From the NCBI GenBank assembly GCA_946185555.1, contig CAMHKB010000001.1, forward strand, positions 7,290-71,289: DNA of 64,000 nucleotides, given 5' to 3'. Shown here one piece after another: positions 1-30,556 of the stretch. Made by a program: the position numbers and the translations under genes. The first letter of the stretch is position 1, and every line of letters begins with the position of its first letter. Origin of the DNA: an uncultured Clostridia bacterium. Lineage in GTDB: Bacteria > Bacillota > Clostridia > Oscillospirales > Acutalibacteraceae. Below the pieces are notes generated by a model that was not told the DNA's origin, did no database searches, and saw only the letters and a program-made list of their open reading frames with translations.

Positions 1-93
1 AAGGTAACTTACATACTTTTTCAGAAACGTTGTTTTACCAGAACCCAAAAAACCTGTTATCAGATCAACCTTTATCAATTTCCTTCCCTCCAT
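1..93 (-). CDS. CobW/G3E-family P-loop GTPase, first 31 codons only (gene runs off the left edge)
   Basis: Reverse complement of 1-93 reads MEGRKLIKVDLITGFLGSGKTTFLKKYVSYL from an ATG at 93-91. GFLGSGKTT is the Walker A typical of CobW/HypB/UreG-type GTPases. It is absent from the ORF track because the window edge truncates it. Confidence 0.5.
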   Translation of the reverse strand, partial: MEGRKLIKVDLITGFLGSGKTTFLKKYVSYL

Positions 94-205
94 TGCATTC
101 TGCGTTACAAACTTATTATATCACAAAATCCCTGATATTTCTATAAATAGTTTGCAGTTGTAAGTTTTAAGTTTTAAGTTGTCCAAAGCTCAGAGCCTTG
201 CGAAC

Positions 206-439
206 CTGTCATTCTGAGCGCAGCGAAGAATCTTTTTCATAAAAGTTACCCAGTGTAAAGATTCTTCGCCGCTTAGTTTCCGATAATAACAGGATTCATC
301 GTTACCGGCAAGTCAAAAAACATCCCAACTCTTAACAACACTCCCGCTCCTCAGAATGACAAATGGGGTAACTTTTGAAACAACGAGAGAAAAAAGCCTG
401 ATACGTTAAGCTCTGAGCTCTGCACTCTTTGCTCTTAGC
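206..439. repeat. full-length copy A of a roughly 235-bp modular intergenic repeat
   Basis: Module order: CTGTCATTCTGAGCGCAGCGAAGAATCTTTTTCAT ... AAAGATTCTTCGCCGCTT ... CCGCTCCTCAGAATGACAAATGG ... AAAAAAGCCTGATAC ... AAGCTCTGAGCTCTGCACTCTTTGCTCTTAGC. GTCATTCTGAG (208-218) is complementary to CTCAGAATGAC (351-361). GCGAAGAATCTTT is complementary to AAAGATTCTTCGC. Confidence 0.8.
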
Positions 440-495
440 TTATTGTATTTCAATTCCACTTTCAACTTTCCACATCCCACATTTTAAAAAAGCTT

Positions 496-531
496 CTGCC
501 GTACATACGCAAGTGATACGATGTACGGCAG
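496..531 (-). terminator. intrinsic terminator after yhgE
   Basis: CTGCCGTACAT (496-506) pairs with ATGTACGGCAG (521-531). On the minus strand the hairpin is followed by AAGCTTTTTT. Confidence 0.7.
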
Positions 532-540
532 ATTAAATTA

Positions 541-2703
541 TTAAACTATTATGTCACTTTGTTCAACACGGTCGTTGAAGAAGGTGATTATTTTTATGCA
601 GGGCTTTCTTAGAATAATGCCGACAACCAGCGCAAAGGGAACAAATGCCAAGAGATAGACTACGTTTGTCCAGTATGCTGTACTGTTAACTCCGGCAACA
701 GCCTCTCTCAGGATATTTACCCCGTACTTGAACGGCAGATAGGGCGACACTGCCTGGAAGGATTCCGGAAGAACCTCTATCGGGAATGTTCCGCCCGAAC
801 CGGCTATCTGTATTACAAGAATTATTACTGACAAAGCCTTTCCTATTACGCTGAATGTTATAGTAAGCGAATAGATGATAAGAGTATATACAAAGCTGGA
901 AATAAGCGCGCCCAAAACAAACAGGAATGGATCGTCACATTGTATTTTCAGGAAGAACAGATCTCCAAGGGCTATTATCAATGCCTGTATCTGACCTATG
1001 AAGAAATAGATAAGATACCTGCCGAAATACTGCTGAGTATTTGTCGGCTTTCTGAGCCTTCTGAGTTCGTGCTTTGCAAGATCGGTCTTCATGACGGCTA
1101 CCATAACTATACCGCCTACCCAAAAAGCAAGGGTAGAATAAAACGGCGTCATGCCTGAACCATAATTATCAAGCGGATACTCATGATGCTCCTTTATTGT
1201 AACAGGACTTGACACAAATTCTCCAAGCGCCTCAGGATTCTTTGTGACAGGCTCTATGATATTCTGAATAGAACTGCTGTCTGACATAAGATCAAGCATT
1301 GTGGAATAGGTTTTGAGCTTTTTCTGAGCATTTGTTATAGAGGTTTTAAGAGTCTTGAATTTTTCCTTAGCCTTGTCAACGGATTCAGATGCCTTATCAT
1401 AGGTATTGTCAAGCTCCGGAACTTTTTCATTAAGATTTGTAAGTATTCCTGCCGCCTTATCTATATACTGATAGGATTTGCTGACAGCCGTATTTATCCT
1501 TCCTCTGACGTTTGCAAAGGCTGTTGAGATCGCCGCTGAATCAACTGATGCAGCTGCAATTGCGCTGTCAAGCCTGTTTTGCATTTCAGCAGTTATCGTA
1601 CCGCTTCTTTCAATAGTGTCCGCTATATTGTCAACATTTGACTTGATATCATTCTGACGCTGTACCGCTGTATTTAGTTTATCGATCACCTCAGAACAGT
1701 CTATATCAAGCGTTTCCTCAATATTGGTGAAAACAGTTATTATACGGTTATACACTGAGACTGCTTTATCATTTACCTCTGTAATACCCCTGAATTTATT
1801 TGCTGCCTCTGTGGTGCCGTCTCCTATCTTATCAAAGGCTGCATCCGCTCTTGAAGCAAGCTCAGCGGTATAATTCTGCGCTGCGTTGATAGATGTTTCT
1901 ATAGAATCAGTGATCTGCAAAGCTGCATTCTGTGTTGACGCTATAGAGCGTTTCATTCCGGTTATATTGTTCCGCACGTCAGATATGCTTTTCTTTATCT
2001 GGGGAACCTGATCTTTTCTTGTTTTTATTTCATCCTTCAGCGTATCTGTAGTGTTGATAAAAACATCAATACTTGATTTAAGCTTTTCAAGCTCCTGATC
2101 CGCCTTCTCCATATTATCCGCAAGACTATCTGTAGCCTTATCCTTCGTCTTGTCCAGTGTATCTGTCGCAATATTCAGCGTTGTGGCAATTACCTGTGTT
2201 ATTGTACTTACGTATGTAGAATTTACTGATTCTTCAATTGTCTGTATTCCCTTATCCGTTATCTTAGGAGCGATAGCATTCTTTTTTTCGTTTACATAAT
2301 ATTGCAGTTTAGCCTGCTCAAACTTTCCGGTAGTAAGAGACAGAAGACATTCGCTGAAATCCTTCGGAACAATTACGGCAGCATAATATGTTCCGTCCTT
2401 TACGCCGTCTATTGCCTCTTTTTCACTTACAAAGGTCCAGCCCATTTTGTCGTTCATTTTCAGATTATCTACTATCTGATCGCCGGCGTTTATCTTTATG
2501 CTCTTAAAGCTGTATCCCTTGTCAAGAGAACACACAGCAAAGCTCAGACCGTTTGTACTGGAATATGGATCCCAGTTCGCCGCAATATTGAACCACGCAT
2601 AAAGTGCCGGAAGAATAGATATGCCTATAATAACTATAAACACTATCAGATTTTTCGCAATACTTTTCAGATCATTCAGAAATATTCTGAATATATTTTT
2701 CAT
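541..2703 (-). CDS. YhgE/Pip-domain membrane protein
   Basis: 720-aa ORF. It has an N-terminal TM helix (LIVFIVIIGISILPALYAWFNI), a long Thr/Ala/Asp/Lys-rich coiled-coil-like ectodomain and a C-terminal multi-TM block. This is the YhgE/Pip (ABC-2-like) layout. Confidence 0.75.
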   Translation of the reverse strand: MKNIFRIFLNDLKSIAKNLIVFIVIIGISILPALYAWFNIAANWDPYSSTNGLSFAVCSLDKGYSFKSIKINAGDQIVDNLKMNDKMGWTFVSEKEAIDGVKDGTYYAAVIVPKDFSECLLSLTTGKFEQAKLQYYVNEKKNAIAPKITDKGIQTIEESVNSTYVSTITQVIATTLNIATDTLDKTKDKATDSLADNMEKADQELEKLKSSIDVFINTTDTLKDEIKTRKDQVPQIKKSISDVRNNITGMKRSIASTQNAALQITDSIETSINAAQNYTAELASRADAAFDKIGDGTTEAANKFRGITEVNDKAVSVYNRIITVFTNIEETLDIDCSEVIDKLNTAVQRQNDIKSNVDNIADTIERSGTITAEMQNRLDSAIAAASVDSAAISTAFANVRGRINTAVSKSYQYIDKAAGILTNLNEKVPELDNTYDKASESVDKAKEKFKTLKTSITNAQKKLKTYSTMLDLMSDSSSIQNIIEPVTKNPEALGEFVSSPVTIKEHHEYPLDNYGSGMTPFYSTLAFWVGGIVMVAVMKTDLAKHELRRLRKPTNTQQYFGRYLIYFFIGQIQALIIALGDLFFLKIQCDDPFLFVLGALISSFVYTLIIYSLTITFSVIGKALSVIILVIQIAGSGGTFPIEVLPESFQAVSPYLPFKYGVNILREAVAGVNSTAYWTNVVYLLAFVPFALVVGIILRKPCIKIITFFNDRVEQSDIIV

Positions 2704-2739
2704 ACTTATTTATCCCCCTTTTCAGCGTATGTGAATATA

Positions 2740-3351
2740 TTATTTCTTTCCCTCAGGTTCAGCCGGTGAAGCCTGACTGCTGTTTTCAGCCGGGGTCTGT
2801 TCCGGCTCAGTTTTTACATCAGGCTTTACGTCAGGTTTTACACCAGCGTCCTTTTTTTCCGGTACTTCAGGAGGAGATACCATAACAACATCCTCCTCTT
2901 CATCATTTTCCTCTGCTATCATTTCATAATAGTCAAATTCATCTGCTATTCCGAGAAACTCCTTGAACATATGGTATCTGTATTCCGCCCTTATCATGAC
3001 GGCAACACAGTAAAGAATAGAAATCACCCACAAAACAAGAAATTCTATCTTAGTATCAAGACTGAACATCAGCGCAAGGAAAATAATACCGGTTATAATA
3101 ATGACCAGTGCGCCGTATTTCCTGTAAGCAGTCCTTTTCTGTTTTGAGTTATTATACTCATCAAGCACCATAAGATATGTAAGATGCTCCCTTTCACTCT
3201 GAGACAAAGGAGGTATTGACATATCCTTGCTGTCATATTTTTCATGGAGCGCATCCATTTCGGATTTTTCGTTCGGTGTAAAGCTATCCTTATATTTAGA
3301 AATGTGATTTAAAATATAGGAGTAATCAGATTTCTTTTTTCTCAGCGACAT
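2740..3351 (-). CDS. hypothetical membrane protein with acidic / KPDV-repeat tail
   Basis: 203-aa ORF with two central hydrophobic helices (ALVIIITGIIFLALMF, FLVLWVISILYCVAVMI), then an acidic stretch and KPDVKPDVK low complexity. No family recognised. Confidence 0.5.
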   Translation of the reverse strand: MSLRKKKSDYSYILNHISKYKDSFTPNEKSEMDALHEKYDSKDMSIPPLSQSEREHLTYLMVLDEYNNSKQKRTAYRKYGALVIIITGIIFLALMFSLDTKIEFLVLWVISILYCVAVMIRAEYRYHMFKEFLGIADEFDYYEMIAEENDEEEDVVMVSPPEVPEKKDAGVKPDVKPDVKTEPEQTPAENSSQASPAEPEGKK

Positions 3352-3599
3352 ATTAAGCCTCCCTTACTATACCTTGCTCTAATCAGCATATGTATATTAT
3401 AAAGTTCTTTGTTACATCTGTCAAATAAATAAAAGGTCTTTTCTGACAATTCGATATTAATGGTGAAATGTTTCGTCATTAGCAACAAAACACCCCCAAA
3501 AAATGCAGCAAATATAACAAAGCCAACAAAAAACAGACAGGATGACCTTTCAGCCGATCTTGTCTGTTTTACGCTTTTATTCCCTGCTGTCTTCTTCAA
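3342..3599 (-). CDS. hypothetical small membrane protein
   Basis: 85-aa ORF with one TM helix (CLFFVGFVIFAAFFGGVLLLM). It overlaps its neighbours by 10 nt and 23 nt in operon-like fashion. No family recognised. Confidence 0.3.
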   Translation of the reverse strand: MKKTAGNKSVKQTRSAERSSCLFFVGFVIFAAFFGGVLLLMTKHFTINIELSEKTFYLFDRCNKELYNIHMLIRARYSKGGLICR

Positions 3600-3771
3600 G
3601 ATAATCTTCGTAGTAATTATACTCGTCTATATGCTCGTTATTTGTCTTTCCGTTTGAAGCAAAGGCAAGATAATCCTCTGACGTATCAAATTCATCATCA
3701 GAAGCAGCATAGTCAATGTTCTCCGGATCTAATGTTTCTCCGTGCAGCTTTTTATTTTTCATTTTCCTCAC
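3577..3771 (-). CDS. hypothetical small acidic protein
   Basis: 64-aa Asp/Glu/Tyr-rich ORF, first of three overlapping small ORFs upstream of yhgE. No family recognised. Confidence 0.3.
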   Translation of the reverse strand: MRKMKNKKLHGETLDPENIDYAASDDEFDTSEDYLAFASNGKTNNEHIDEYNYYEDYLEEDSRE

Positions 3772-3831
3772 CAGTTATATTATGCCCGGAGAAAAGCATT
3801 TAATACCTATAGCCGTCAGTTATAAGTTGGA

Positions 3832-3880
3832 AGTTGGAAGTTATCAGTTATAAGTAAAATGTAACTGACAACTTCCAACT
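3832..3880 (-). repeat. GT-rich/AC-rich low-complexity hairpin just 3-prime of metA
   Basis: AGTTGGAAGTTATCAGTTA (3832-3850) pairs with TAACTGACAACTTCCAACT (3862-3880), 18 of 19 positions. It begins 4 nt after the metA stop, and no U-tract follows. Confidence 0.65.
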
Positions 3881-3884
3881 GTTA

Positions 3885-4826
3885 TTATACTTCTTCATCA
3901 AATCCCTTGATATCTGATATATCATAAGGCGTCTGCTGGTATACATAATAGTTCAGCCAGTTTGAATACAATATAGTCGCATAGCTTCTCCATGTAAGGT
4001 TAGGCAGTGCTCTGGGATCATTTCCGGGGAAATAGTTATACGGAAGAGGAGGCTCTATACCTTTATTTCTATCACGGAAATATTCGTTTGCAAGGGTATT
4101 CCTGTCATATTCCGCATGACCGGTAACAAAAAACTGTCTTCCGTTTTTATTTGCGACGATCGCAACGCCTGCTATATTTGAAGAAGCAAGAATTTCAAGC
4201 TCATTATGCTCCCGGATATCAGAACGGTGATTTCCGGTATATCTTGAATGCGGCAGAAGTATTTTATCGTCAAATCCTCTCATAAGCGGATGAAAGGCAT
4301 TCATGACCCTGTGGACATATACGCCTGAAAGCTTTTCGTCAAGCTCAAACTTCGGCACTCCGTAATGATAATAAAGCCCTGCCTGCGCTCCCCAGCAGAT
4401 GTGGAACGTGCTGTAAACATTTGTCTTCGACCATTCCATGATACTGCAAAGCTCCTGCCAGTAGTCAACCTCTTCAAACTCCATCTGTTCTACAGGCGCG
4501 CCTGTGATTATCATGCCGTCATAGCGGTTGTCCTTCACCTGATCGAAGGTCTGGTAAAATGCTGTCAGATGATCTGCCGGAGTATTCTTGTTTTTCGATA
4601 CATGTGTCGCCATTTGCAGAAGCTCAATATCCACCTGGAGAGGACTGTTTCCAAGAAGCCTGAGAAGCTGAGTCTCCGTTTCAATCTTATTAGGCATAAG
4701 ATTGAGTATAAGAATCTTCAATGCTCTGATATCCTGAGACATTGCTCTCTCATCCGTCATTACGAAAATGTTTTCAGCTTCAAGCGTCTTATAGGCCGGA
4801 AGCTGACTTTGAATTTTGATTGGCAT
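3885..4826 (-). CDS. metA: homoserine O-acyltransferase (MetA type)
   Basis: 313-aa [26 protein letters not shown]...[10 protein letters not shown]...[15 protein letters not shown]. This is the full-length MetA/HTS pattern. Confidence 0.9.
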
Positions 4827-4892
4827 ACTAAATTACTTCTTTCTTTTTATTCTTTCCTTTTGTAAAAATATTTGTATATATTGTAGCTAAAT

Positions 4893-5999
4893 TTAATCAA
4901 GAAAATCCTTGAGCTTTTTGCTGCGGCTGGGGTGACGGAGCTTGCGAAGGGCTTTAGCTTCTATCTGCCGGATTCGTTCTCTTGTTACGCTGAACTCTTC
5001 CCCAACCTCTTCAAGAGTTCTTGCACGCCCGTCATCAAGACCGAAACGAAGTCTGAGTACCTTTGCTTCCCTTGGAGTAAGAGTATTGAGTACATCATTA
5101 AGCTGCTCCTTAAGAAGTGTATTTGAAGCTGCGTCCTGAGGTGCAGGCGCGTCATCATCGGGAATGAAATCGCCTAAATGACTGTCTTCCTCTTCACCGA
5201 TCGGCGTTTCAAGGGATACAGGCTCCTGAGACACACGCATTATCTCCCTGACTTTTTCAGCCGGCATTTTCAGATATTCAGCTATTTCCTCCGCTGTCGG
5301 TTCGTGACCTGTTATATGAAGAAGCTGGCTTGACGCTTTCTTTACCTTGTTTATGGTCTCAACCATATGTACAGGTATTCTTATCGTCCTTGCCTGATCT
5401 GCTATGGCACGGGTTATCGCCTGACGTATCCACCATGTAGCGTATGTTGAAAACTTGAATCCTTTTGTATGGTCGAATTTTTCGACTGCCTTTATTAGTC
5501 CTAAATTGCCCTCCTGAATGAGATCGAGAAACTGCATACCTCTTCCAAGATAACGCTTGGCTATACTTACCACCAGTCTGAGGTTGGCTTCAGACAGTCT
5601 TTGTTTCGCCGCTACCTCGCCTCTTGAAATACGTTTGGCAAGATCAGTCTCTTCATCGCCGGTAAGCAGCGGCACTCTGCCTATTTCTTTAAGATAGATT
5701 TTTACCGGATCATCTATAGTTACGCCCTCGGAACTATCGAAACCGTCGTCAGACATACCCTCATTTTCCGCTATAGAAGAAAGCTCGCTGTCGTCAAGAA
5801 TGATATCGTCAAGTGTTTCCACGATCTCTATGCCGTTTGTTTCCAAAGAATCATAGAACCGCTCCATTGCCTCAGCATCAATATCCATTTCTCCTATAGC
5901 ATCAAGTATTTCCTTATTACTAAGATGTCCTTTTGTTTTTCCTAATTCTGTCAGTTCCTTGAGTACTGATTTTCTTTCCGGCTGTACCATATTTGCCAT
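4893..5999 (-). CDS. rpoD: RNA polymerase primary sigma factor, copy 1
   Basis: 368 aa with all sigma-70 regions present: [12 protein letters not shown] (1.2), [18 protein letters not shown] (2.2), [20 protein letters not shown] (2.3/2.4) and [22 protein letters not shown] (4.2). Confidence 0.9.
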
Positions 6000-6060
6000 A
6001 AGTTTATTCCTCCCGAATATTATATATGCCTTCCTTTGTCATAAACAAAGCTATGTTGGA

Positions 6061-7083
6061 TCACCCATTCTGTCCGCCGAGATGCTTCATGGCAGACTGT
6101 TCAAGCTTTTCAGTTTCCTCTATAGTCATTCCCAGCTTTTCTGAGATTTCATCTGCTGACAGCGGCTTCTCATTTTCAAGTCCGAATTTCAGCTTTATCA
6201 GCTTTGCTTCCTCCGGTGACAATACTGCAAGCATCTGTGCCACCTGAGCTGACATTATTCTTTCCTCTTCTGTTTTTTCCGCGCCGGCTTCATCATCTTC
6301 TTCGTCATCGTTTTTATTTATAAGTGAAACAAGCTTTTTCACTTTTTCCTCACTCAGTCCGGTTTCTGCGGAAATATCATCAAGTGAAGGTTTCTTTCCT
6401 TCTGACAGCATTTTCCTGTAAGTGCTGACAGCTTTTGAAAAATCCTCTGCCTGTGATGCCGGAATTTTCAGGGGCTGTTCGCTAGCCTGCGTCATCTTCT
6501 CCATCATCCTGCATATCTTCCATGCGCAGAAAGCAGAAAAACTCAGTCTTGTATCAGTCCAGCTGTCTGCCTCTGTCATAAGGACAAGATTTCCCTCCTG
6601 CACAAGGTCAAGAAAAAGCACACCCTTACCTATATATTTTTCCGCTGCCATAACAGGAACATACAGGCAGCCTTCTATAAGTCTGTTCTTTGCATCCTCG
6701 CTGCCATCCTCGATCTCGTAAAGAAGCTCCCGCTCCGTTGTGCTGTCAAGCCTTTCAAGCCGTGCTGTTTCCTTAAGATAAAGTACTACAGAATTTTCTG
6801 CACCTGTAACAGCCTTTCTTTCGTCTTCACATGATTCCTTTATCTTTTTATCCAGGCTTTTTATGCTTTCATCATTCAAAAAATAATTGCTGTAGAAGCT
6901 TACAGCGTTATCCGCAAGTATGCTTAATATTTCTTTTACCGCATCATCATCAAAATCATATTCCGACAGTCTCATCATTTCATCAACGCTGAGCATATCT
7001 CCGTTTACAGCCGCATTTGAAATAAGTCCTACTGCCGCTGTGTCAATAGCTATTCTTTTGCTCTTCATTCTTTCCTTCTCCAT
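6061..7083 (-). CDS. divergent sigma-70-derived protein (DNA-contact motifs degenerate)
   Basis: 340 aa, colinear with the flanking RpoD copies: VLYLKETARLERL (1.2-like), LDLVQEGNLVLM (2.2-like), FSAFCAWKICRMMEKM in place of [16 protein letters not shown], and MTIEETEKLEQSAMKHL in place of [17 protein letters not shown]. The start lies 2 nt after the upstream rpoD stop. Confidence 0.7.
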   Translation of the reverse strand: MEKERMKSKRIAIDTAAVGLISNAAVNGDMLSVDEMMRLSEYDFDDDAVKEILSILADNAVSFYSNYFLNDESIKSLDKKIKESCEDERKAVTGAENSVVLYLKETARLERLDSTTERELLYEIEDGSEDAKNRLIEGCLYVPVMAAEKYIGKGVLFLDLVQEGNLVLMTEADSWTDTRLSFSAFCAWKICRMMEKMTQASEQPLKIPASQAEDFSKAVSTYRKMLSEGKKPSLDDISAETGLSEEKVKKLVSLINKNDDEEDDEAGAEKTEEERIMSAQVAQMLAVLSPEEAKLIKLKFGLENEKPLSADEISEKLGMTIEETEKLEQSAMKHLGGQNG

Positions 7084-7085
7084 AA

Positions 7086-8171
7086 TTATTTAAGCTTTTT
7101 GCTTCTGCTCGGATGGCGAAGCTTTCTCAGCGCCTTTGCCTCGATCTGACGTATTCTTTCCCTTGTTACGTCAAATTCCTCTCCTACCTCTTCAAGAGTT
7201 CTAGGACGTCCGTCGTCAAGACCAAATCTGAGACGTATTACCTTTTCTTCTCTTGGTGTAAGAGTAGACAGAACAGAATTGAGCTGTTCCTTTAACATTG
7301 CCTGAAGTGCCGCTTCCTGCGGAGTCAATGTGCTCTCATCAGGAATGAAGTCACCCAAATGGCTGTCCTCTTCCTCACCTATTGGTGTTTCAAGGGATAC
7401 AGGCTCCTGTGAAGCCCTCATTGCCTCTTTTATCTTATCCGGGGACATACCTAAATAATCTGCTATATCCTCTGCTGATGGCTCGTGACCGTTCTCATGA
7501 AGCAGCTGTATAGACGCTTTCTTTATTTTGCTGATAGTTTCACCCATATGAACGGGAATACGTATTGTCCTCGACTGATCTGCTATGGCTCTGGTTATCG
7601 CCTGTCTTATCCACCATGTAGCATAGGTTGAAAATTTGAAGCCCTTTGTATGATCGAACTTTTCCACTGCCTTCATCAAACCGAGGTTTCCTTCCTGAAT
7701 CAGATCAAGCAGCTGCATTCCTCTGCCGAGATAACGCTTTGCTATGCTTACAACAAGACGAAGGTTTGCTTCTACAAGACGCTTTTTTGCCTCCTCGTCC
7801 CCTTCAAGGATTTTTTCAGCAACGTCTGATTCTTCACCGGGACTAAGCAGAGGAACCCTTCCTATTTCTTTCAGATATATCCTGACAGGATCATCTGTAC
7901 TTACTGCGGAATCCGGAACGATAAATTCTTCGTCCTCATTTTCCGACAATGTCTGAAGCTCCGGGTCTTCAAGCATAATATCGTCTATCGAATCAACGAT
8001 CTCAACTCCGCTTGATTCAAGCATATTATAAAAGCTTTCCATCTGATCCGGTTCTATATCTATCTCAACCGTTGCGTCAAATATTTCCTTGCTTGTGATC
8101 TGACCTTTATTCTTGCCTATTTCCAGCAGATCCCCCAAGACATTTTTCTTATCCGTTTGCTGATTATTCAT
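7086..8171 (-). CDS. rpoD: RNA polymerase primary sigma factor, copy 2
   Basis: 361 aa. It shares long identical runs with copy 1 ([58 protein letters not shown]). All sigma-70 regions are intact. Confidence 0.9.
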
Positions 8172-8246
8172 ACATTCCCTCCTGTATATTTCATTGCCTC
8201 ATCTTTTTTTATAAGCTCAGAGCTTGTGCTTTTTATTTGTAATTAA

Positions 8247-8325
8247 TAAGTTGTCAGTTATAAGCTGTCAGTTATAAGTTTTGGGTTAACTCAAGCTTAC
8301 AACTTATAACTCATAACTTACAACT
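8247..8325 (-). repeat. GT-rich/AC-rich low-complexity hairpin between dnaG and rpoD copy 2
   Basis: The left arm TAAGTTGTCAGTTATAAGCTGTCAGTTATAAGTT faces the right arm AAGCTTACAACTTATAACTCATAACTTACAACT. AGTTATAAGTT (8270-8280) pairs perfectly with AACTTATAACT (8303-8313), and a second imperfect helix lies outside it. Confidence 0.65.
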
Positions 8326-8333
8326 ACTAAAAG

Positions 8334-10130
8334 CTATTTTTTCTTTTCTCTCATTCTGCGGAGCTGTTCCATGATAGTGTCGTTATCCGCTGCCGCTGCC
8401 TGAGCCGGAGTAAGCTTATTTTTTTGTTCTGTAAGAATATTGATATATCCGCGCGCCGACTCAGAGGGTGTACTATCACGGGGGTGGGAAGTCATCATAG
8501 CCGCAAGACGTCCCATTTCGCTTGCAGTGAAATCACCGGAAATATCCGTTATTGATACATCCTTGCCCTCATTTATTCTTTTTCTGAGTACCTCATAAAT
8601 ATGTCTGTTGAAATTTGTAACAAAAGTTTCCGGCGAAAGCGTACCGGCTATTTCAACCGCTGTATCAGGCTCATACAGCATGATAGATATGATCGCCTCC
8701 TCAGCGTTTGCCGCACGGAGATTGAATTTCTTTTCAGGATTCAGCTTATCAGCCGCCGCAGAAAGATCAGTCTGCGCCTTTCGCTGCTGTACCTTTTTGT
8801 TTTCAAAGGAGCTGTACTTGTTATTCTTTTCTACAAGCCGTTTCAGGGATGTTTTTTCTATTTCAAGCTCCTTTGCAATACGGCTTATGTACACATCCTG
8901 TTCAACAGGATTTTCTATGCCGGCAATCAGATATGCAGCCTTTGTGGCAAAATCCACCTTCTGCTCCGGTATTTCTAAATTGTACCGTCCCCGAAGCTTC
9001 ATAAGCCTGTATTCTATGTCATTACCCGATTTTTCAAGAAGCATACGAAATCTTGCGCTGCCCTGGTCGCCGTGTGATTTTATAAATTCATCAGGGTCTT
9101 TTCCGTTTGGTACAGTCAGCACCCTTATCTTTATGCCGGTAGGTCTGAGAATGTTTATAGCGCGCTGTGTAGCTTTCTGCCCGGCTTCATCAGCGTCATA
9201 GCAGATAACAACCTCATCGCAGTATTTCTTTATTATCATCGCCTGATCCTCTGTAAGCGCTGTCCCGAGAGTGGCTACAGCGTTTTCAAAACCTGCCTGA
9301 TGAAGCGCTATAACATCCATGTATCCCTCAACAAGTATAAGCTGTCTTTTGGGATCATTTTTCGCGAATTTCAGGGCAAACAGGTTTTTGCTCTTGTTGA
9401 ATACAGGTGTATCAGATGTGTTAAGATATTTGGGCTTTCCATCTGACATCAACCTTCCGCCGAACGCAATAACCTTTCCCTTCACATCAATTATCGGAAA
9501 CATTACACGATCGGAGAATCTGTCAAAAGCATATCCCTTATCAGACTGATTCGCAAGGTTTGCCTGTATCATTTCATATTTGGTAAATCCCTTCGACTTA
9601 AGATGATTTACAAGCTCAAATCTGTCACGGGGAGAGTAACCAAGTCCGAAATGTATAATGGTTTTTTCTGTAAGTCCTCTGCCCCTCAGATAATCAAGTG
9701 CCTGCTTACCGGCTGGTGAGTAAAGCTGACGGTGGAAAAATCTTGCCGCCTCACGATTCGCTTCATATATCCGCATTCTGAGCTTTGCCATACCGTCAGA
9801 AATATCATTTTCCGGAACAGTCATTCCAGCCCTATCCGCAAGAAACTTTACAGCATCAACATAGTCAAGATTTTCGATCTTCATTATGAATGTAATAACG
9901 TCTCCGCCGACGCCGCACCCGAAGCAATGGAAAAATCCGTTCTCTCTTGATACGCTGAAGGAAGGCGATCTCTCATTATGGAACGGACACAGCCCCATAA
10001 GATTTCTTCCTGATCTTTTCAGCTGAACATAAGAAGATATCACATCCGCTATATCTGTTCTTGACTTTAGTTCCTGTTTAAATTCCTCTGTAATTGCCAA
10101 TACACCGCATCTCCTTTTATTACAGACCAA
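8334..10130 (-). CDS. dnaG: DNA primase
   Basis: 598 aa with the zinc ribbon CPFHNERSPSFSV...FHCFGCG, a TOPRIM segment (LVEGYMDVIAL, ICYDADEAGQKAT) and a C-terminal helper domain. The real start may be the TTG at 10100 (MAITEEFKQ...). Confidence 0.9.
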   Translation of the reverse strand: MVCNKRRCGVLAITEEFKQELKSRTDIADVISSYVQLKRSGRNLMGLCPFHNERSPSFSVSRENGFFHCFGCGVGGDVITFIMKIENLDYVDAVKFLADRAGMTVPENDISDGMAKLRMRIYEANREAARFFHRQLYSPAGKQALDYLRGRGLTEKTIIHFGLGYSPRDRFELVNHLKSKGFTKYEMIQANLANQSDKGYAFDRFSDRVMFPIIDVKGKVIAFGGRLMSDGKPKYLNTSDTPVFNKSKNLFALKFAKNDPKRQLILVEGYMDVIALHQAGFENAVATLGTALTEDQAMIIKKYCDEVVICYDADEAGQKATQRAINILRPTGIKIRVLTVPNGKDPDEFIKSHGDQGSARFRMLLEKSGNDIEYRLMKLRGRYNLEIPEQKVDFATKAAYLIAGIENPVEQDVYISRIAKELEIEKTSLKRLVEKNNKYSSFENKKVQQRKAQTDLSAAADKLNPEKKFNLRAANAEEAIISIMLYEPDTAVEIAGTLSPETFVTNFNRHIYEVLRKRINEGKDVSITDISGDFTASEMGRLAAMMTSHPRDSTPSESARGYINILTEQKNKLTPAQAAAADNDTIMEQLRRMREKKK

Positions 10131-10139
10131 ACAAACATG

Positions 10140-11156
10140 TTAAACGCTTCCGCGGTTCATATATATAAACGGTTTAGGTATGTACAGCTCCTTGAACTTT
10201 TCGACAGCATATCTGTCAGTCATTCCTGCAAGATAGTCACAGACTGCGGTCTGAGTACCCTCAGCTGTAACCGTATGTCTGTTTTCAGAGGGCATTTCAA
10301 GGGGATGCTTCAAAAAATATTCATACAGAAATCCGATAAAATCAGGAACCTTTCTTTCTTCATGCTTTGCATATTCATTAGAATACACTACCGCATACAT
10401 GAACCTGTGAAGTCTGTCGAATACCCCCTGCACCTCATCATCCATGCAAAGTACACCGTCCCTTGAATTTGAAACAAGGGATATGACAAGAGTATTTATT
10501 CTGTCAGAGGTTTTATGTCCGAGAACCTTCCCCACCTCTGTCGGAAGCTCATCCTCTGATATAACTCCTGCCCTCACTGCATCGTCAATATCATGGTTGA
10601 TATAGGCTATCCTGTCAGCTATGCGAACTATTCTTCCTTCAACTGTATCAGCTTCTCTGCCTTTGGTATGGCATACTATACCGTTTCTTGTTTCATATGT
10701 AAGGTTCAGACCTCTGCCGTCCTTTTCAAGCTTATCAACAACCCTGAGACTTTGTTCATAATGTCTGAAACCTCCGGGTACAAGAGAATCAAGCGCACGT
10801 TCTCCTGCATGGCCGAACGGTGTATGTCCCAGATCGTGCCCCAGAGCCACTGCCTCCGTCAGGTCCTCATTTACCCTCAGCGCCCTTGCTATAGTTCTTG
10901 CTATCTGCGACACTTCAAGAGTATGGGTAAGACGTGTACGGTAATGATCTCCCTCAGGGGATAAAAAAACCTGTGTCTTATGCTTAAGACGCCGGAAGGA
11001 TTTGCAGTGTATTATTCTGTCGCGATCACGCTGAAGCTCTGTGCGTATACTGCATTTTTCTTCATATATACCTCTGCCCTTTGTTGAATCAGAAAAACAG
11101 GCAAAATCAGAAAAATACAATTTTTCATTTTTTTCTGTAACTTCTCTTATATTCAT
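10140..11156 (-). CDS. dgt: dGTP triphosphohydrolase-like HD-domain protein
   Basis: HD motifs RLTHTLEVSQIAR and GHDLGHTPFGHAGE are present. I place the start at the ATG at 11156 (MNIREV...), preceded by AAGGGGGTG, rather than at the ORF-track start at 11189. Confidence 0.85.
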   Translation of the reverse strand: MNIREVTEKNEKLYFSDFACFSDSTKGRGIYEEKCSIRTELQRDRDRIIHCKSFRRLKHKTQVFLSPEGDHYRTRLTHTLEVSQIARTIARALRVNEDLTEAVALGHDLGHTPFGHAGERALDSLVPGGFRHYEQSLRVVDKLEKDGRGLNLTYETRNGIVCHTKGREADTVEGRIVRIADRIAYINHDIDDAVRAGVISEDELPTEVGKVLGHKTSDRINTLVISLVSNSRDGVLCMDDEVQGVFDRLHRFMYAVVYSNEYAKHEERKVPDFIGFLYEYFLKHPLEMPSENRHTVTAEGTQTAVCDYLAGMTDRYAVEKFKELYIPKPFIYMNRGSV

Positions 11157-11268
11157 CGGTTTCACCCCCTTGACCCGCAATATTTGCAATTATTTTTTGG
11201 ATCGCTGTAGTATCAATCTCAGCTTCTATTTATAAATGGGCAAATCTGACAAATTGCACAAATCATAT

Positions 11269-11356
11269 GTCATTCTGAGGAGCGACAGCGGCGAAGAATC
11301 TTTTCGATAATGCTGTTTTAGTGGAAAAGATCCTTCGCTTACGCTAAGGATGACAG
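11269..11356. repeat. short hairpin form of the modular repeat
   Basis: GTCATTCTGAGGAGCGACAGCGGCGAAGAATCTTTT ... AAAAGATCCTTCGCTTACGCTAAGGATGACAGG. The two arms are imperfectly complementary over about 30 nt. Confidence 0.7.
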
Positions 11357-11491
11357 GTTGGGTATGATATAGAAGACAATATTATTGTGCATAATCACGA
11401 ACAATTATTAATTTGCTCATTTATAGCTTCTATATTAATTATACGCACAAAAAAGGATTATACCTTTTTTTCTTTTTCAGATTTTAGTATA

Positions 11492-12112
11492 TCAGCAGGC
11501 AAAATAATCTTCACCCGTTATTTCTGTTTCAACCGTTGCCCCTGTAGCATCTGCTAAGGACCGGGAAAAACCGCCCATATCCTCAGGTGCTATATGAAAA
11601 TCTATAGTTACATTTTCTCCGAACCCAATATCATCTATTTCTCCGCCGCATGACGGAATAAGCCCTGACAATTTTCCATACTGATTATAACTGCATACTA
11701 TTCTGCATTTATGGCATTTCTTCATTGTGATGATATTTCCGGCTTCAAGGGCAATTTTTGCGGACCTTGTGTATGCCCTGACAAGACCGCCTGCCCCCAA
11801 CAGAATACCGCCGAAATATCTTGTCACAACCACAGCGGCATCTGTCACTCCTGATTTCACAATTACATCAAGAACAGGTACTCCAGCCGTTCCATGAGGT
11901 TCTCCGTCATCGCTGTATCTCTGCACTCCGCTGTCCCTGAGAACATACGCATATACATTATGCCTTGCGTCCCAGTGCTGTTTCTTCTTTTCTTCAATAA
12001 ACATCAGAGCCTCCTCCTCAGTTTTAACAGGACGCACATAGCCTATGAATCTTGATCTCTGCTCTGTAAATTCATCCTGCGCTTCTTTTCTGACAGTTTT
12101 GTATTCATCCAT
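11492..12112 (-). CDS. yigZ: YigZ/IMPACT-family protein
   Basis: RSRFIGY...YSDDGEPHGTAGVPVL...VVVTRYFGGILLGAGGL is the UPF0029/IMPACT signature. The likely start is MDEYKT at 12112. Confidence 0.8.
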   Translation of the reverse strand: MDEYKTVRKEAQDEFTEQRSRFIGYVRPVKTEEEALMFIEEKKKQHWDARHNVYAYVLRDSGVQRYSDDGEPHGTAGVPVLDVIVKSGVTDAAVVVTRYFGGILLGAGGLVRAYTRSAKIALEAGNIITMKKCHKCRIVCSYNQYGKLSGLIPSCGGEIDDIGFGENVTIDFHIAPEDMGGFSRSLADATGATVETEITGEDYFAC

Positions 12113-25729: not shown

Positions 25730-28700
25730 TCACTTAACTGTCAGCGTGAAATCCCTAGAAACAACGCTTCCGCTGTTATCCTTTACGTTGATTCTGAGGC
25801 TGTAGGTGCCGGCAGCTTTAGGTGTATATTTGCATGAAGTATTTGAACTATATGCAGATCCGTCAATAACCATAAGCTTCTCCCATGAAGTTGCTGACGC
25901 TTTCTTGTAGTAATAAGCATACAGATAGGGGCTTGTACCGCCGCTTGCCTTACCATTAAGAGTAACTGGTGTGTTAGCCGATACACTTGTAGAGCTTACA
26001 GTAGAGCTGTTTGTTAGAGAAGCAGATGATGCCTTTACTGTAAGTGTAAACTCCTTGGAAACAACCTGACCTTCGCCGTACTGATCCTTGACGTTGATTC
26101 TTACATCGTACGTTCCGGCTGATGTAGGCTTGAAGGTTACGGAATCATACTTTGTATATGCAGAACCGCTTGATGTAACGTACGCCTTTGTCCATGAGCT
26201 GTCAGTTGACTTCTTATAGTAGTAAGCGTACTTGTAGGGGCTTGTACCGCCTGCTCCAACACCTGTCAGAGTAACTGTTGTGTTTGCTGTAACACTTGTC
26301 GCACTGATCTTTGAATTATTTGTAAGAGCTGTTCCGCCCGTTGCTTTTACAGTAAATTCCTTGGATGCAACTGTTCCGGCTGTATCCTTAACATTTACCT
26401 TCAGGTTATATGTACCTGCTGCTGTAGGAGTAAACTTGTAGGATGTATTTGTTACATATACAGAGCCGTTAGAATTTGAAAGCTTTGTCCATGTGCTGTC
26501 GGTTGACTTCTTGTAGTAGTAGCCGTACTTATAAGAGCTTGAACCGCCGCTTGCCTTTGCTGTAATTGTTACAGCAGAGTTAACTGCTACGCTTGTTGAG
26601 CTTACTGTTGAGCTGTTTATAAGATCTGCGCCGGTAGCCTTTACCTGGAGTTCCTTAGAAGCAATTGCGCCGGAATCATCCTTGACATTGACTTTAATAT
26701 TATAAGTACCTGCTGTTGTCGGTTTGAACTGATATGATGTATTTGTTACATATACAGAACCGTTAGAATTTGAAAGCTTTGTCCATGTGCTGTCGGTTGA
26801 CTTCTTATAGTAGTAGCCGTACTTATAAGGAGTTGAACCGCCTGTTGCCTTGGCTGTAATTGTAACAGCAGAGTTAACTGCTACGCTTGCTGCGCTGATT
26901 GTTGAGTTGTTTGCAAGAGGTGAACCGTTTGCTGTTACCTCAAATTCCTTCTGAACAATTGTACCCTCTGAATCCTTGACATTGATCTTAAGGTTGTAGG
27001 TACCTGCCGCCTTAGGTGTGAATGTATATGATGTATCGCTTACATATACAGAACCGTTAGTTTCAGAAAGCTTTGTCCATGTGCTGTCGGTTGACTTCTT
27101 GCAGTAGTAGCCGTACTTATAAGGAGCTGTACCGCCGCTTGCTGAGCCTGACATTACAACATTGTTGTTTACATCAACTGTCTGAGCACTGATGGTTGAG
27201 TTGTTCTTGAGAGCGCCTGTACAAACTACTGTAAATTCCTTAGAAACTACTGTACCTTCGCTGTCCTTAACGCTTACTTTTGCAATATATTCGCCGTCAG
27301 CGGCAGGCTTGAATGTTCCTGTTGTAGCTGAGCCGAATGCTGTTCCTATAGTTGTCCATGAGCTTGCGGAAGCCTTCTTATAGTAGAAAGCATACTTATA
27401 CGGACTTGAGCCGCTGCTTGCCTTACCTGTCATCTTAACATCTGTATTAAGCTTGACATTTGTAGCACTTATTATAGAATCATTTGAAAGGTCTGTTGAA
27501 CCGCATACTTCACAAACCTTTATAGTTTTACCGCTTGCATTTGTTACAGTCTTCCATGTGTGGTCAGACTTCGGGATAGCTGCTGTGAATGTTGTTCCGC
27601 ATATATTACACTTATACTGTGCTTCGCCTTCTTCAGAGCAGGTAGCCTCTTTGATGGTCTTTGTAATCGTCTTATCACCGTGCTTGCAGAATATATCAAA
27701 AGATACTGTTGTATTGCCGTTATAGTTTCCTTTACCGGTAATTTTAACATTGCTTGTGCCGGGCTTCTTGTTTGTTGTTGCATAAGTAAGAGTATAATCT
27801 GTACCCTCCGCAAGCTTGTAGCCCTTATAATAAACAACAACTTCCGGCTTAACACCTGTGGTCTTGTTATCCATAGTAAGTTCCTGATCAGGAATATTTC
27901 TGACGATAACCTCAGGATCGGATACCGGTCTTGCAGTGATCTGTATCTTCTTTGTTACCTTTGAGTTGTACTTGCCCATACCTATTACTTCAATAGTAAC
28001 ATATTCGCCGACTGTGTTATTATCTGTGTATGTAACCTCATAATCTTTGCCCTCTACGAGGCTGACATTAACTGTGGTGGAATGACCCAGAATATCAGTT
28101 TCTGTATAGCTGTATGCTACACTTACAGAAGGTCTGTAAACCTGTAATGTAGGATCATATGTTGCAGATCCGTAAATAACGGTCGCACTTCCGAGAGCAT
28201 ATTCTACAGAAACATGGCAAACATCCGTCTTATTGCCTGATTTAACTGTAATATTACAGTCGCCGAGTGCATGACCAGTAACCTTACCTGTTGAATCTAC
28301 TGTAGCTATATTTTCATCGCTTGATGACCATTCAAGATTAACGCCCGATACAGCAGTATCAGATTCGTTATATACAGTTGCACTCAGAGTTTCAGTCGCA
28401 GTCATTGTATTCTTTGCGAGTGTTATTGTAAGATCCGGAAGGGATCCGTCCGTCTTTGTTACAAGCTTACTGCCCTTAAGTACTACAGATGAGGTAGTAA
28501 AGCCAACAAGTGTGGTTGTTGCAGTCTTGCCTGATTCAGCAGTTGCAGTAAGAACAGCCTTACCGTTTCCTACTATCTTTACAAAGCCATCGTCAGTTAC
28601 CTGTGCAACAGCTGTATTGTTTGACTTCCAGTGAGCTACTCTGTCATCATGATCATAAGGCTGGTTTGTAGATATCTTCAGATCTCCGTCCAGAGAAAGT

Positions 28701-30556
28701 GTTGAACCAACATTAAGATTCTTCTTATAGCTTGTATCTCTTGCAACAGCGTCAACTATCGTAAAGCTTGTTGCTCTTTTAAGGACATTAAGATCAAAAA
28801 GTTTGGAGATAGTAGGATTGTTTTTAGAGCTTACCTTTACCTGAACGCTTCCTCTTGCAAATCCTTTAAGAGTAAGAGCTGTTGCTGTTTCGCTTACAAT
28901 AGTAACATAATCGCCATTGTTAGCGCCGTTTCCTAAAACCTCCCAGACCATAGTATCGTCCGGTGTAGAGCCGTCTAATGCAACAAGAGCACCGGTAAAT
29001 GTTATATTATTCTGGTCAAACACCTCTACAACAGAGCCGTTATATACATTAACAATATTGTCATCCTTAGCATATGTAACAGATATCTCCGCAGATTCTG
29101 TCTTCTTAACAACATTTACAGTGATCTTAGCCTCAACGCCTGAGTTCTTAGCTTTTGCCGTAATTACAGCTGTTCCGACTTTAACACCAGTAACAGCAGC
29201 AGTCTGGCTGTTAGTAAACTTGCCGTTTACAAGCGACTCAACTGTTGCAACAGAAGTATTGGAGGAAGACCATATGATCTCTTCATCTGCTGTGTCAGGA
29301 TTCATTTTTGCAGTCAGTACAGTCTGTCCGTCAACCTTTGTAGATGGAGTGCCTGTGATCTTGATAGACTGTGCCTTTGTGAGAACCTTTATATCCACCT
29401 CAGCGTGAACATTTTCATTCTCAGCAGTAATTGTGATCTTAGCATCGCCCTTGCCTACTGCCTGAATGTTGCCCTCATCATCAACAGTAACAACCTTAGA
29501 GTTACTTGTAGACCATGTAAAAACGTCAGTTGCGCCGGATTCATAGCCTGCGCCTGAATATGCTGCATCGCTCTCGAAAGCAAGCTTCATCTTGTCTCCT
29601 ACTTCCATTGCGGAAGGAGCATTCTTTATTGCAAGACCCGTAGCCGGGTTTTCCTTAACTATTGTTACATGAAGGAACTTCGGAACGCTCTGAACATCTG
29701 CATCTTCCCCGTCAACCTTTCTGGTTGTGAAACTCTTTTCCTTCTTGGAAGTAGAAGTTTTCTTATACTTCGTAACTATTGTCACTTCGCCGTTTGTCTT
29801 AGGAGTGAAAAGACCTGTCTGTGTAATTTCGGCCTTGCTTGTAGTTTTTCCTGTAGAAGTCCCATCGTAGTATCCGTCATAAACAGCCCACTCGACCTCA
29901 TCAGTAGAAGACGACGGAATTCTTTCTGCATCAAACTGATACTTGTGGTTAGCTATAGTCATAATACTTGCTGAAATAATGGGGTTGTTATCCTTATCCT
30001 TAAGCTCAGTTTTACCCTTGTTCGTGACCCAGAATACCTTCATATCTGTTGCCGGTTCAAGTGTGACTATAGTTACGGAACGATAAACCTCACCGCCTGC
30101 TGTTGTGAAGTAGATATGGCTTGTACCGGCCTTTCTTGACGCACCCTCGCCGTCATATCCGTTAACTGTAACCTCCAGCTCGCCTGGTTTTTTCATCGAA
30201 TAAGAGCTGTATTTTTCGCCATCGCTGTCGCCCTCATAGAAGCAGCGGATCTGATCCTCTACAGCTGCGCCGTTATCATTGCTTGCCACAACAGTAAATT
30301 TTCTTGAAGTGATGTTATCCTTGTTTGCCCTGTTGTTATCAACATAGAAAACAGCGTTGTCGCCAAGGTCTTTTCCATTTTCATCAAGAACCTTCAGCTT
30401 TGTTGCAACAGCAGAAGCTGCGCTTGCAACAATACCCGTCTGCGATGTACCCACAGCCATCTCTGCCACTGCGCCCGGAACAAGAACAGCCGCAGCCGAA
30501 AGTACTGCAAGAACCTTGAGTGCTGCACGGCGGGTACGTGTTTTTGAAATTTGCAT
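25730..30556 (-). CDS. large secreted surface protein: multiple Big_2-like Ig domains, a Cys-rich module, six C-terminal triple-tyrosine (Y_Y_Y-like) repeats
   Basis: 1608 aa. There is a signal peptide (RRAALKVLAVLSAAAVLVPGAVA). Repeated ...W.SSN..VATVD..G.V.A...G.A.ITA... units are Big_2-like. Six roughly 92-102 aa repeats each carry GG.SPYKY.YYYKK....W and AGTY...INVKD. Confidence 0.8.
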   Translation of the reverse strand: MQISKTRTRRAALKVLAVLSAAAVLVPGAVAEMAVGTSQTGIVASAASAVATKLKVLDENGKDLGDNAVFYVDNNRANKDNITSRKFTVVASNDNGAAVEDQIRCFYEGDSDGEKYSSYSMKKPGELEVTVNGYDGEGASRKAGTSHIYFTTAGGEVYRSVTIVTLEPATDMKVFWVTNKGKTELKDKDNNPIISASIMTIANHKYQFDAERIPSSSTDEVEWAVYDGYYDGTSTGKTTSKAEITQTGLFTPKTNGEVTIVTKYKKTSTSKKEKSFTTRKVDGEDADVQSVPKFLHVTIVKENPATGLAIKNAPSAMEVGDKMKLAFESDAAYSGAGYESGATDVFTWSTSNSKVVTVDDEGNIQAVGKGDAKITITAENENVHAEVDIKVLTKAQSIKITGTPSTKVDGQTVLTAKMNPDTADEEIIWSSSNTSVATVESLVNGKFTNSQTAAVTGVKVGTAVITAKAKNSGVEAKITVNVVKKTESAEISVTYAKDDNIVNVYNGSVVEVFDQNNITFTGALVALDGSTPDDTMVWEVLGNGANNGDYVTIVSETATALTLKGFARGSVQVKVSSKNNPTISKLFDLNVLKRATSFTIVDAVARDTSYKKNLNVGSTLSLDGDLKISTNQPYDHDDRVAHWKSNNTAVAQVTDDGFVKIVGNGKAVLTATAESGKTATTTLVGFTTSSVVLKGSKLVTKTDGSLPDLTITLAKNTMTATETLSATVYNESDTAVSGVNLEWSSSDENIATVDSTGKVTGHALGDCNITVKSGNKTDVCHVSVEYALGSATVIYGSATYDPTLQVYRPSVSVAYSYTETDILGHSTTVNVSLVEGKDYEVTYTDNNTVGEYVTIEVIGMGKYNSKVTKKIQITARPVSDPEVIVRNIPDQELTMDNKTTGVKPEVVVYYKGYKLAEGTDYTLTYATTNKKPGTSNVKITGKGNYNGNTTVSFDIFCKHGDKTITKTIKEATCSEEGEAQYKCNICGTTFTAAIPKSDHTWKTVTNASGKTIKVCEVCGSTDLSNDSIISATNVKLNTDVKMTGKASSGSSPYKYAFYYKKASASSWTTIGTAFGSATTGTFKPAADGEYIAKVSVKDSEGTVVSKEFTVVCTGALKNNSTISAQTVDVNNNVVMSGSASGGTAPYKYGYYCKKSTDSTWTKLSETNGSVYVSDTSYTFTPKAAGTYNLKINVKDSEGTIVQKEFEVTANGSPLANNSTISAASVAVNSAVTITAKATGGSTPYKYGYYYKKSTDSTWTKLSNSNGSVYVTNTSYQFKPTTAGTYNIKVNVKDDSGAIASKELQVKATGADLINSSTVSSTSVAVNSAVTITAKASGGSSSYKYGYYYKKSTDSTWTKLSNSNGSVYVTNTSYKFTPTAAGTYNLKVNVKDTAGTVASKEFTVKATGGTALTNNSKISATSVTANTTVTLTGVGAGGTSPYKYAYYYKKSTDSSWTKAYVTSSGSAYTKYDSVTFKPTSAGTYDVRINVKDQYGEGQVVSKEFTLTVKASSASLTNSSTVSSTSVSANTPVTLNGKASGGTSPYLYAYYYKKASATSWEKLMVIDGSAYSSNTSCKYTPKAAGTYSLRINVKDNSGSVVSRDFTLTVK
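25733..27490 (-). repeat. six in-frame tandem coding repeats (276-306 nt units) at the 3-prime end of the surface-protein gene
   Basis: Unit boundaries by my count are 25733-26026, 26027-26332, 26333-26629, 26630-26923, 26924-27214 and 27215-27490. Units 3 and 4 share long near-identical DNA runs (compare 26450-26530 with 26750-26830). Confidence 0.8.

Follow-up and report, generated by a model that had tools for sequence, protein, structure and literature searches.

A conserved, degenerate housekeeping-sigma paralog, with the core-binding patch retained and the promoter-reading residues replaced, accompanies rpoD in uncultured gut Clostridia

Why would a bacterial lineage carry, between two complete genes for its housekeeping sigma factor, a third sigma-like gene whose product seems unable to read promoters? 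This question is raised by a 64,000-nt stretch of DNA from an uncultured Clostridia bacterium (positions 7,290 to 71,289 of contig CAMHKB010000001.1, assembly GCA_946185555.1; hereafter the window), in which five genes lie in a row on the minus strand in the order dgt-dnaG-rpoD-A-PSI-rpoD-B. PSI is the name that we use for the middle open reading frame (ORF), and rpoD-A and rpoD-B are the copies that flank it. An initial annotation had described this ORF (6061-7083, minus strand, 340 aa) as derived from sigma-70 and colinear with RpoD neighbors, and had claimed, quoting four of its peptides, that it keeps the core-binding region and has lost promoter-reading residues. The ORF exists, all four peptides are present in it, and the analysis presented here bears out both its origin and this division of its residues. 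PSI is best read as a descendant of the housekeeping sigma factor that is maintained by selection and would be unable to read promoters.

The relationship of PSI to the housekeeping sigma factors was established by profile comparison. Profile NF006666 (Firmicute RpoD) aligned residues 6-335 of PSI with its positions 5-356 of 370 (E=4.5e-37), and a profile of the PSI family matched over the full length the SigA proteins of C. difficile (PDB 7l7b, E=5.8e-56) and B. subtilis (7ckq, E=1.6e-55). The window PSI is 27-29% identical to the flanking RpoDs, and its scores were accordingly low: 128.2 bits with NF006666, against a cut-off of 572, so that it fails the group-1 equivalog threshold, and 85.2 bits with TIGR02393, whose cut-off of 354 was not reached. 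The sigma-70 superfamily model TIGR02937 was passed (59.2 bits, cut-off 42.9). Among the Pfam regions Sigma70_r4 was the sole one above threshold (32.5 bits vs 24.1); Sigma70_r2 (19.8) and Sigma70_r3 (18.5) remained sub-threshold, and r1_1 and r1_2 went undetected in PSI, although the NF006666 and PDB alignments span the N-terminus. An AlphaFold2 model with a mean predicted local distance difference test score (pLDDT) of 83.5 showed a sigma fold, with a sigma-1.1-like domain and sigma-2 above 90, sigma-3 and sigma-4 at ~70-85 and a disordered linker, and the top Foldseek matches of this model were all SigA, RpoD or RpoS chains. Judged by these alignments, PSI is a full-length, colinear and very divergent descendant of Firmicute SigA/RpoD, and by homology it is classed in the sigma-70 superfamily, without the thresholds and DNA-contact features that define group 1. 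Assignment to a known alternative sigma was rejected, given that the NCBIfam scores for RpoS, RpoH, SigB/F/G, SigK, extracytoplasmic function (ECF) sigmas and the defence-associated MzaA were far under their cut-offs and weaker than that of RpoD. No receiver or other sensory domain was found in PSI with Pfam. The curated family models (Pfam, NCBIfam) and the database sources gave no name for PSI, the exact 335-aa window protein had no entry in the contig index, and literature searches returned no promoter-blind paralog derived from a group-1 sigma, no pseudo-, decoy or dominant-negative sigma and no tandem rpoD array; the earlier remark that no described family with this layout was known is thus supported.

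PSI also carries a motif of its own, IK.(L)...I..S.EEE[RK], at residues ~72-88 (window ~6820-6870, minus strand), between the sigma-1.1-like domain and region 1.2. Its residues I74, K75, S84 and E88 (340-aa numbering) were invariant in a ten-member alignment. No equivalent of this motif exists in RpoD-A/B, and it might serve as a new interaction site.

The contact between sigma region 2.2 and the beta-prime clamp helices is described as essential for holoenzyme formation (bioRxiv 10.1101/2021.06.06.447298). The residues of this patch were analyzed in 17 array orthologues of PSI and in 33 RpoD-A/B sequences, and are numbered here by E. coli sigma-70. The equivalents of L402, D403, L404, Q406, E407, G408 and M413 were identical in 17/17 PSI orthologues, that of N409 was kept in 14/17, and I405 was replaced by V in all 17; D403, Q406 and E407 correspond to D154, Q157 and E158 of the 335-aa protein. 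Across a broader set, D403, Q406, E407, G408 and N409 (or S) hold in 22/22 PSI lineages; the more divergent members keep [LST]D[LM]VQEGN, and the motif LDLVQEGN..M is invariant or nearly so throughout the family. Over all 152 positions that are invariant in RpoD-A/B, PSI had a mean entropy of 1.62 bits and 33% identity to the RpoD residue, while the region 2.2 contacts had a mean entropy of 0.44 bits (permutation P<5e-5) and 78% identity, and the DNA contacts one of 1.87 bits (one-sided P=0.058) and 18% identity.

As this last figure indicates, the residues that read promoters have followed the opposite course. Fifteen contact positions (K414, K418, K426, W434, R436, Q437, T440, R441, H455, R584, R586, R588, Q589, K593 and R599) are invariant in 33/33 RpoD-A/B sequences; they are replaced in PSI, and most of them differ between PSI orthologues. 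The substitutions include K426 to S, W434 to R or K, Q437 to R, R441 to E, R586 to E and R599 to G. From the group-1 set of residues for the -10 and extended -10 elements, PSI has kept only E458 and the aromatic character at 430 and 433. The group-1 recognition helix for the -35 element (R584, E585, R586, R588, Q589) is not conserved either: R584 has become I, E, A or V, R586 is E in 11/15 members, and R588 is variable. The charge of the DNA-facing segments is reversed, as had been noted for region 4.2 in the window, and the reversal extends to the family, with a mean net charge of -2.5 in region 2.3-2.4 (vs +3 in RpoD-A/B) and of -3.4 in the region 4.2 helix-turn-helix (vs +1.9 in RpoD-A and +2.2 in RpoD-B). 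Furthermore, the region 3.2 linker of PSI is on average 12 aa shorter (33 aa vs 45), and the conserved sigma-finger motif of region 3.2 is absent from it. Since region 2.2 is kept and the promoter contacts are lost, the pattern is the one expected of a protein that docks on core RNA polymerase and is blind to promoters.

Whether PSI is a decaying duplicate was evaluated from its distribution and the selection acting on it. Among uncultured Clostridia of the rumen and the rabbit gut, at least 22 lineages have PSI orthologues with intact ORFs, and the most diverged of these are still ~31% identical to the window protein. When 5.8 billion proteins were searched, ten PSI clusters were obtained (36-99% identity, E 1e-51 to 1e-205), after which the E-value jumps to ~1e-28 with ordinary RpoDs. 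An exhaustive hidden Markov model search of 1.84 billion representatives likewise gave only ~12 PSI clusters at 50% identity (235-530 bits), true RpoDs starting at 210 bits or less. PSI was present in 15 genomes of the GTDB species set, all of them uncultured rumen or rabbit-gut metagenome-assembled genomes (MAGs) labeled Ruminococcus sp., Ruminococcaceae, Clostridiales or Clostridia. Across these 15, identity to the window proteins was 79-89% for RpoD-A, 83-93% for RpoD-B and 33-53% for PSI. The ratio of nonsynonymous to synonymous substitution rates (dN/dS) was calculated by the Nei-Gojobori method from pairs with unsaturated dS. It was 0.17 for PSI, 0.035 for rpoD-A and 0.045 for rpoD-B between the window and locus L087; 0.12, 0.042 and 0.026, in the same order, between L013 and L014; and 0.21, 0.022 and 0.036 between L001 and L011. 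The PSI ratio was well under 1 in every domain. These values clearly point to purifying selection on PSI, 4-6 times more relaxed than on the flanking rpoDs. That PSI is a decaying duplicate, a pseudogene or a neutral remnant without function can therefore be regarded as effectively refuted, and we give it next to no weight: it evolves faster than any other gene of the array and does not reach most family thresholds, but intact ORFs persist in at least 22 diverged lineages, the dN/dS of 0.12-0.21 is low, nearly all loci compared have a Shine-Dalgarno (SD) sequence ahead of the start, and the region 2.2 motif has hardly changed.

In a neighbor-joining tree RpoD-A and RpoD-B were sister clades, younger than the divergence from an Oscillospiraceae genome that has only one dnaG-rpoD. 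The PSI sequences grouped in a single clade on a long branch, and the branching order within this clade parallels that of RpoD-A and RpoD-B, which indicates vertical co-inheritance of the array. The tree places the long PSI branch outside the A+B clade, a position that is probably due to long-branch attraction. Descent from rpoD-A and descent from rpoD-B were both considered; PSI is 22-30% identical to both, and the tree favors neither.

The flanking genes are RpoD, as had been proposed. All five Pfam sigma-70 regions are present in each, and their NF006666 scores were 546.7 bits (RpoD-A) and 592.9 bits (RpoD-B), so that RpoD-B is the only array copy above the cut-off and RpoD-A lies just under it. 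RpoD-A and RpoD-B share 70-76% identity, i.e., two canonical group-1 sigmas are present in one operon; their DNA-contact residues are all intact, both are under strong purifying selection, and the duplication is confined to this rumen and rabbit-gut clade. The features of the locus are collected in Table 1.

Table 1. Features of the sigma array and of the genes upstream of it, in window coordinates.
Feature	Coordinates	Strand	Description
PSI	6061..7068	-	degenerate sigma-A paralog, 335 aa from the probable start M6; RpoD-colinear
Longest PSI ORF	6061-7083	-	340 aa
PSI Shine-Dalgarno sequence GGAGAAGG	7074..7081	-	5-nt spacer to the probable start codon 7068-7066
PSI region 2.2 motif LFLDLVQEGNLVLM	6577..6618	-	equivalent of the surface contacting the beta-prime clamp helices
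PSI degenerate region 2.3/2.4 FSAFCAWKICRMMEKMTQ	6487..6540	-	W434, R436, Q437, T440, R441 equivalents replaced
PSI degenerate region 4.2 recognition helix TIEETEKLEQSAMKHLG	6076..6126	-	R584, R586, R588, Q589, K593, R599 equivalents lost
rpoD-A	7086..8171	-	canonical group-1 sigma, 361 aa; lacks the C-terminal tail (window: DFLD) seen in RpoD-B
rpoD-B	4893..5999	-	canonical group-1 sigma, 368 aa; conserved Shine-Dalgarno sequence CAGGAGGAATAAA ahead of the gene
dnaG (primase)	8334..10130	-	upstream of the sigma array
HD/HD_assoc phosphohydrolase (dGTPase-like)	10140..11189	-	first conserved gene of the dgt-dnaG-rpoD cluster

PSI had been said to be translationally coupled to the rpoD gene upstream of it. 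Its first ATG (7083) does lie 2 nt past the rpoD-A stop, but a second ATG, M6 at 7068, lies 17 nt past this stop and has its own SD sequence, GGAGAAGG. The real start is probably the second ATG, because the gene callers placed the start there in the closest relatives (P0001 and P0002), the orthologue alignments do likewise, and the SD sequence precedes it with a 5-nt spacer. GGAG or GAGG was observed ahead of the PSI start in nearly all orthologous loci compared. Most species have 7-70 nt between rpoD-A and PSI, and one has 437 nt. Strict translational coupling is not supported, on three counts, namely the start 17 nt past the stop, the SD sequence of PSI itself and the gap of up to 437 nt; the spacing of PSI behind rpoD-A is tight operon packing, not demonstrated coupling. 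A consensus scan revealed no consensus promoter or terminator in either of the gaps that flank PSI, promoter-like sites being fewer than in shuffled sequence, and an Rfam scan of positions 4500-11500 gave no match to a structured RNA. From this arrangement, PSI is likely to be co-transcribed with the dnaG-rpoD unit.

The gap between PSI and rpoD-B (6000-6060, minus strand; 24 to 273 nt in other species) contains a perfect TATAAT ~20 nt ahead of the rpoD-B start codon, and a weak TTGTTT precedes this TATAAT by 18 nt. As a shared promoter this element was discarded, since it is not consistently present across loci. The SD sequence of rpoD-B, CAGGAGGAATAAA, is strongly conserved among loci.

The position of PSI between two rpoD copies, whose constancy the initial annotation had proposed to survey, holds for the GTDB arrays, where the order dnaG-rpoD-A-PSI-rpoD-B was found in all 15 genomes wherever the contig was long enough, but it is not universal. 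In one divergent sub-lineage (L091, L095) the order is rpoD-A-PSI-ackA, with an acetate kinase gene in place of rpoD-B. In L004 (positions 1-10163 of a 36.7-kb contig) PSI-rpoD-B comes directly after a DeoR/PfkB/phosphotransferase system operon, without rpoD-A. An identical PSI protein is encoded on other contigs with dnaG-rpoD-A upstream and a spacer of ~437 nt. The L004 arrangement reflects a rearrangement in the strain or else a chimeric assembly. PSI directly follows rpoD-A in all rpoD-A-type contexts examined, down to the most divergent ones (78% identity); rpoD-A is its most constant neighbor. No candidate partner gene, such as one for a small protein or an anti-sigma, was linked to the array in any locus examined.

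A further variation concerns region 4. In three loci from rabbit-gut MAGs (L020, 5164-6066; L021, 6998-7822; L094, 5124-5957) PSI ends after region 3, at 274-301 aa. Region 4 has been deleted entirely, and the space before rpoD-B leaves no room for it. These shortened rabbit-gut proteins remain under purifying selection, with a dN/dS of 0.18, and retain the 2.2 motif.

How, then, might PSI act? Judged by the sequence comparisons, the gene would be expressed, and its product would bind core RNA polymerase and may act as a decoy. PSI would be made from the dnaG-rpoD transcription unit, behind rpoD-A, by means of its own ribosome-binding site. It would sit on core RNA polymerase through the contact of region 2.2 with the beta-prime clamp helices without directing initiation, would thereby lower or buffer the supply of core for RpoD-A and RpoD-B alike, and might tilt the choice toward one of them. 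That PSI is a core-binding, non-initiating sigma that acts as a competitor or placeholder is the proposal that we tentatively put forward. On the same tentative footing, it could be a natural dominant-negative version of the housekeeping sigma that parks or rations core and arbitrates between two housekeeping sigmas, a mode of global transcription control for which the literature searches returned no bacterial example; in a still more exotic variant, PSI would serve in immunity, as a decoy that sequesters sigma-A inhibitors encoded by phages.

Several observations weigh against PSI being a promoter-blind competitor for core, and some of them also argue for a different protein, namely an active alternative sigma with non-canonical specificity, which might recognize only a -10-like element or single-stranded DNA through its remodeled region 2.3/2.4, in the manner of sigma-2-only factors such as gp55 of phage T4, or might depend on a helper protein. 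Region 2.3/2.4 is partly conserved in the family: 16/17 PSI orthologues have F or Y at the Y430 equivalent and the W433 equivalent is aromatic in 19/22, basic residues (R or K) occupy position 434 in 16/17 and position 437 in 14/17, and E458 and P453 are invariant in the 17/17 array orthologues; a SF.A[FY] motif is also conserved. Such family-wide features could reflect a residual or altered contact with DNA. An active sigma would equally keep the core-binding patch, and three species do without region 4, like the sigma-2-only factors. We nevertheless consider an active sigma unlikely, because the contact columns T440, R436, H455, R584 and R588 vary among orthologues, as they do not in a true sigma family, the segments that face DNA carry a net negative charge, the sigma finger is gone, the W433 equivalent is non-aromatic in 3/22 members, and no candidate regulon or promoter motif is known for PSI. 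Two other points count against a competitor for core. An inhibitor that is co-transcribed with its target sigma needs extra regulation, and none is visible; and the 4-6-fold higher dN/dS could mean that PSI is weakly constrained and serves a minor function.

The patch itself is open to another interpretation, since a decoy for a sigma-A-binding protein would be equally expected to keep it. Anti-sigmas typically cover the region 2.2 surface of their sigma, and the conservation of this surface in PSI would be in line with a sigma mimic that titrates such a protein (a cellular anti-sigma-A or regulator, or a phage inhibitor) and does not act on RNA polymerase. The rapid evolution of PSI relative to RpoD-A/B would be compatible with an arms race. 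However, the array is without a linked candidate partner gene in any locus, PSI has no receiver or sensory domain, its dN/dS is well under 1 in every domain, and we know of no chromosomal anti-sigma-A in Firmicutes; a mimic therefore seems to us decidedly unlikely, even if a degenerate sigma fold minus its DNA-reading residues has a counterpart in PhyR (PMC4551977). PSI might instead act on RpoD-A, RpoD-B or the assembly of RNA polymerase, as a chaperone, heterodimer partner or stabilizer, without competing for core. This would fit the near-invariant linkage to rpoD-A, the vertical inheritance of the array as a unit and the PSI-specific motif (IK..x..S.EEE[RK]) between regions 1.1 and 1.2, for which RpoD has no counterpart. 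It would leave unexplained why conservation of the protein peaks precisely at the clamp-helix contact residues, and no precedent for sigma-sigma complexes is known to us, so that we rate this explanation as very improbable. The competitor for core is thus the explanation that we carry forward, with the reserve already expressed. While the observation of a conserved, degenerate sigma paralog is firmly established, the function of PSI is put forward as a testable hypothesis.

The notion that sigmas compete for limited core RNA polymerase is central to bacterial gene regulation, and the known modulators of this competition are anti-sigmas, small RNAs and small molecules. If PSI does compete for core, the pseudo-sigma would join these as a new regulator class, comparable to the Id proteins among the basic helix-loop-helix factors or to pseudo-enzymes, and PSI would explain how this lineage keeps two housekeeping sigmas side by side. 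The PSI family would also be a natural mutational map that separates the core-binding from the DNA-binding determinants of sigma.

Other parts of the window, all on the minus strand, encode a 1300-aa protein with HD/HD_5, PAS and GGDEF domains (56703-60605), which is likely a cyclic di-GMP signalling protein, a 1608-aa protein with Big_2/Ig-like repeats (25730-30556), probably located at the cell surface, and a 727-aa ORF (61589-63772) with no Pfam match at E<=1e-5. No rpoC was detected among the large window ORFs scanned with Pfam. Some RpoD-like proteins of the representative library (P0159, P0160, P0163) are 541-1465 aa long and contain 3-9 sigma-matching stretches, with an exact internal repeat of regions 3-4 in P0159; these are probably assembly or gene-calling artefacts.

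Several known systems resemble PSI in outcome or in origin. Rsd, AsiA of phage T4 and 6S RNA lower the activity of the sigma-70 holoenzyme by binding sigma region 4 or by mimicking open promoter DNA. The proposed outcome is the same, i.e., less housekeeping holoenzyme at promoters, but PSI would vie with sigma for its binding site on core, and there is no sequence relationship. The sigma-2-only factor gp55 of phage T4 and the split sigma SigO-RsoA of B. subtilis direct promoter-specific initiation. They are a precedent for the PSI variants that lack region 4, with homology taken at the level of the sigma-70 superfamily only; unlike them, PSI is without conserved DNA-contact residues. The group-1 sigma RpoD/SigA is the evolutionary parent of PSI, with which it has in common the region 2.2 motif, the dnaG-rpoD operon and apparently the domain order (1.1-like, 1.2, 2, 3, 4); PSI differs from it by the replaced promoter contacts, the reversed charge, the shorter linker and a 4-6x faster evolution. 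More than one group-1 sigma gene is also present in C. difficile, where one of sigA1 and sigA2 lies in the dnaG operon and SigA2 is listed for stationary phase (PMC7438776). SigA2 corresponds here to RpoD-A/RpoD-B and not to PSI, so that the C. difficile pair is a precedent for duplicated housekeeping sigmas and not for a degenerate copy. In the general stress response of alphaproteobacteria, the sigma-like domain of PhyR captures the anti-sigma NepR by sigma factor mimicry (PMC4551977, PMC4814048). PhyR and PSI are both degenerate folds of the sigma family that do not appear to specify promoters and whose proposed mode of action is competition between proteins. PhyR is derived from an ECF sigma, is fused to a receiver domain and binds NepR, whereas PSI is derived from group 1, stands alone, keeps the clamp-helix motif and apparently regions 1.1 to 4, and has no linked anti-sigma. 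By this analogy, PhyR is the closest conceptual precedent for PSI.

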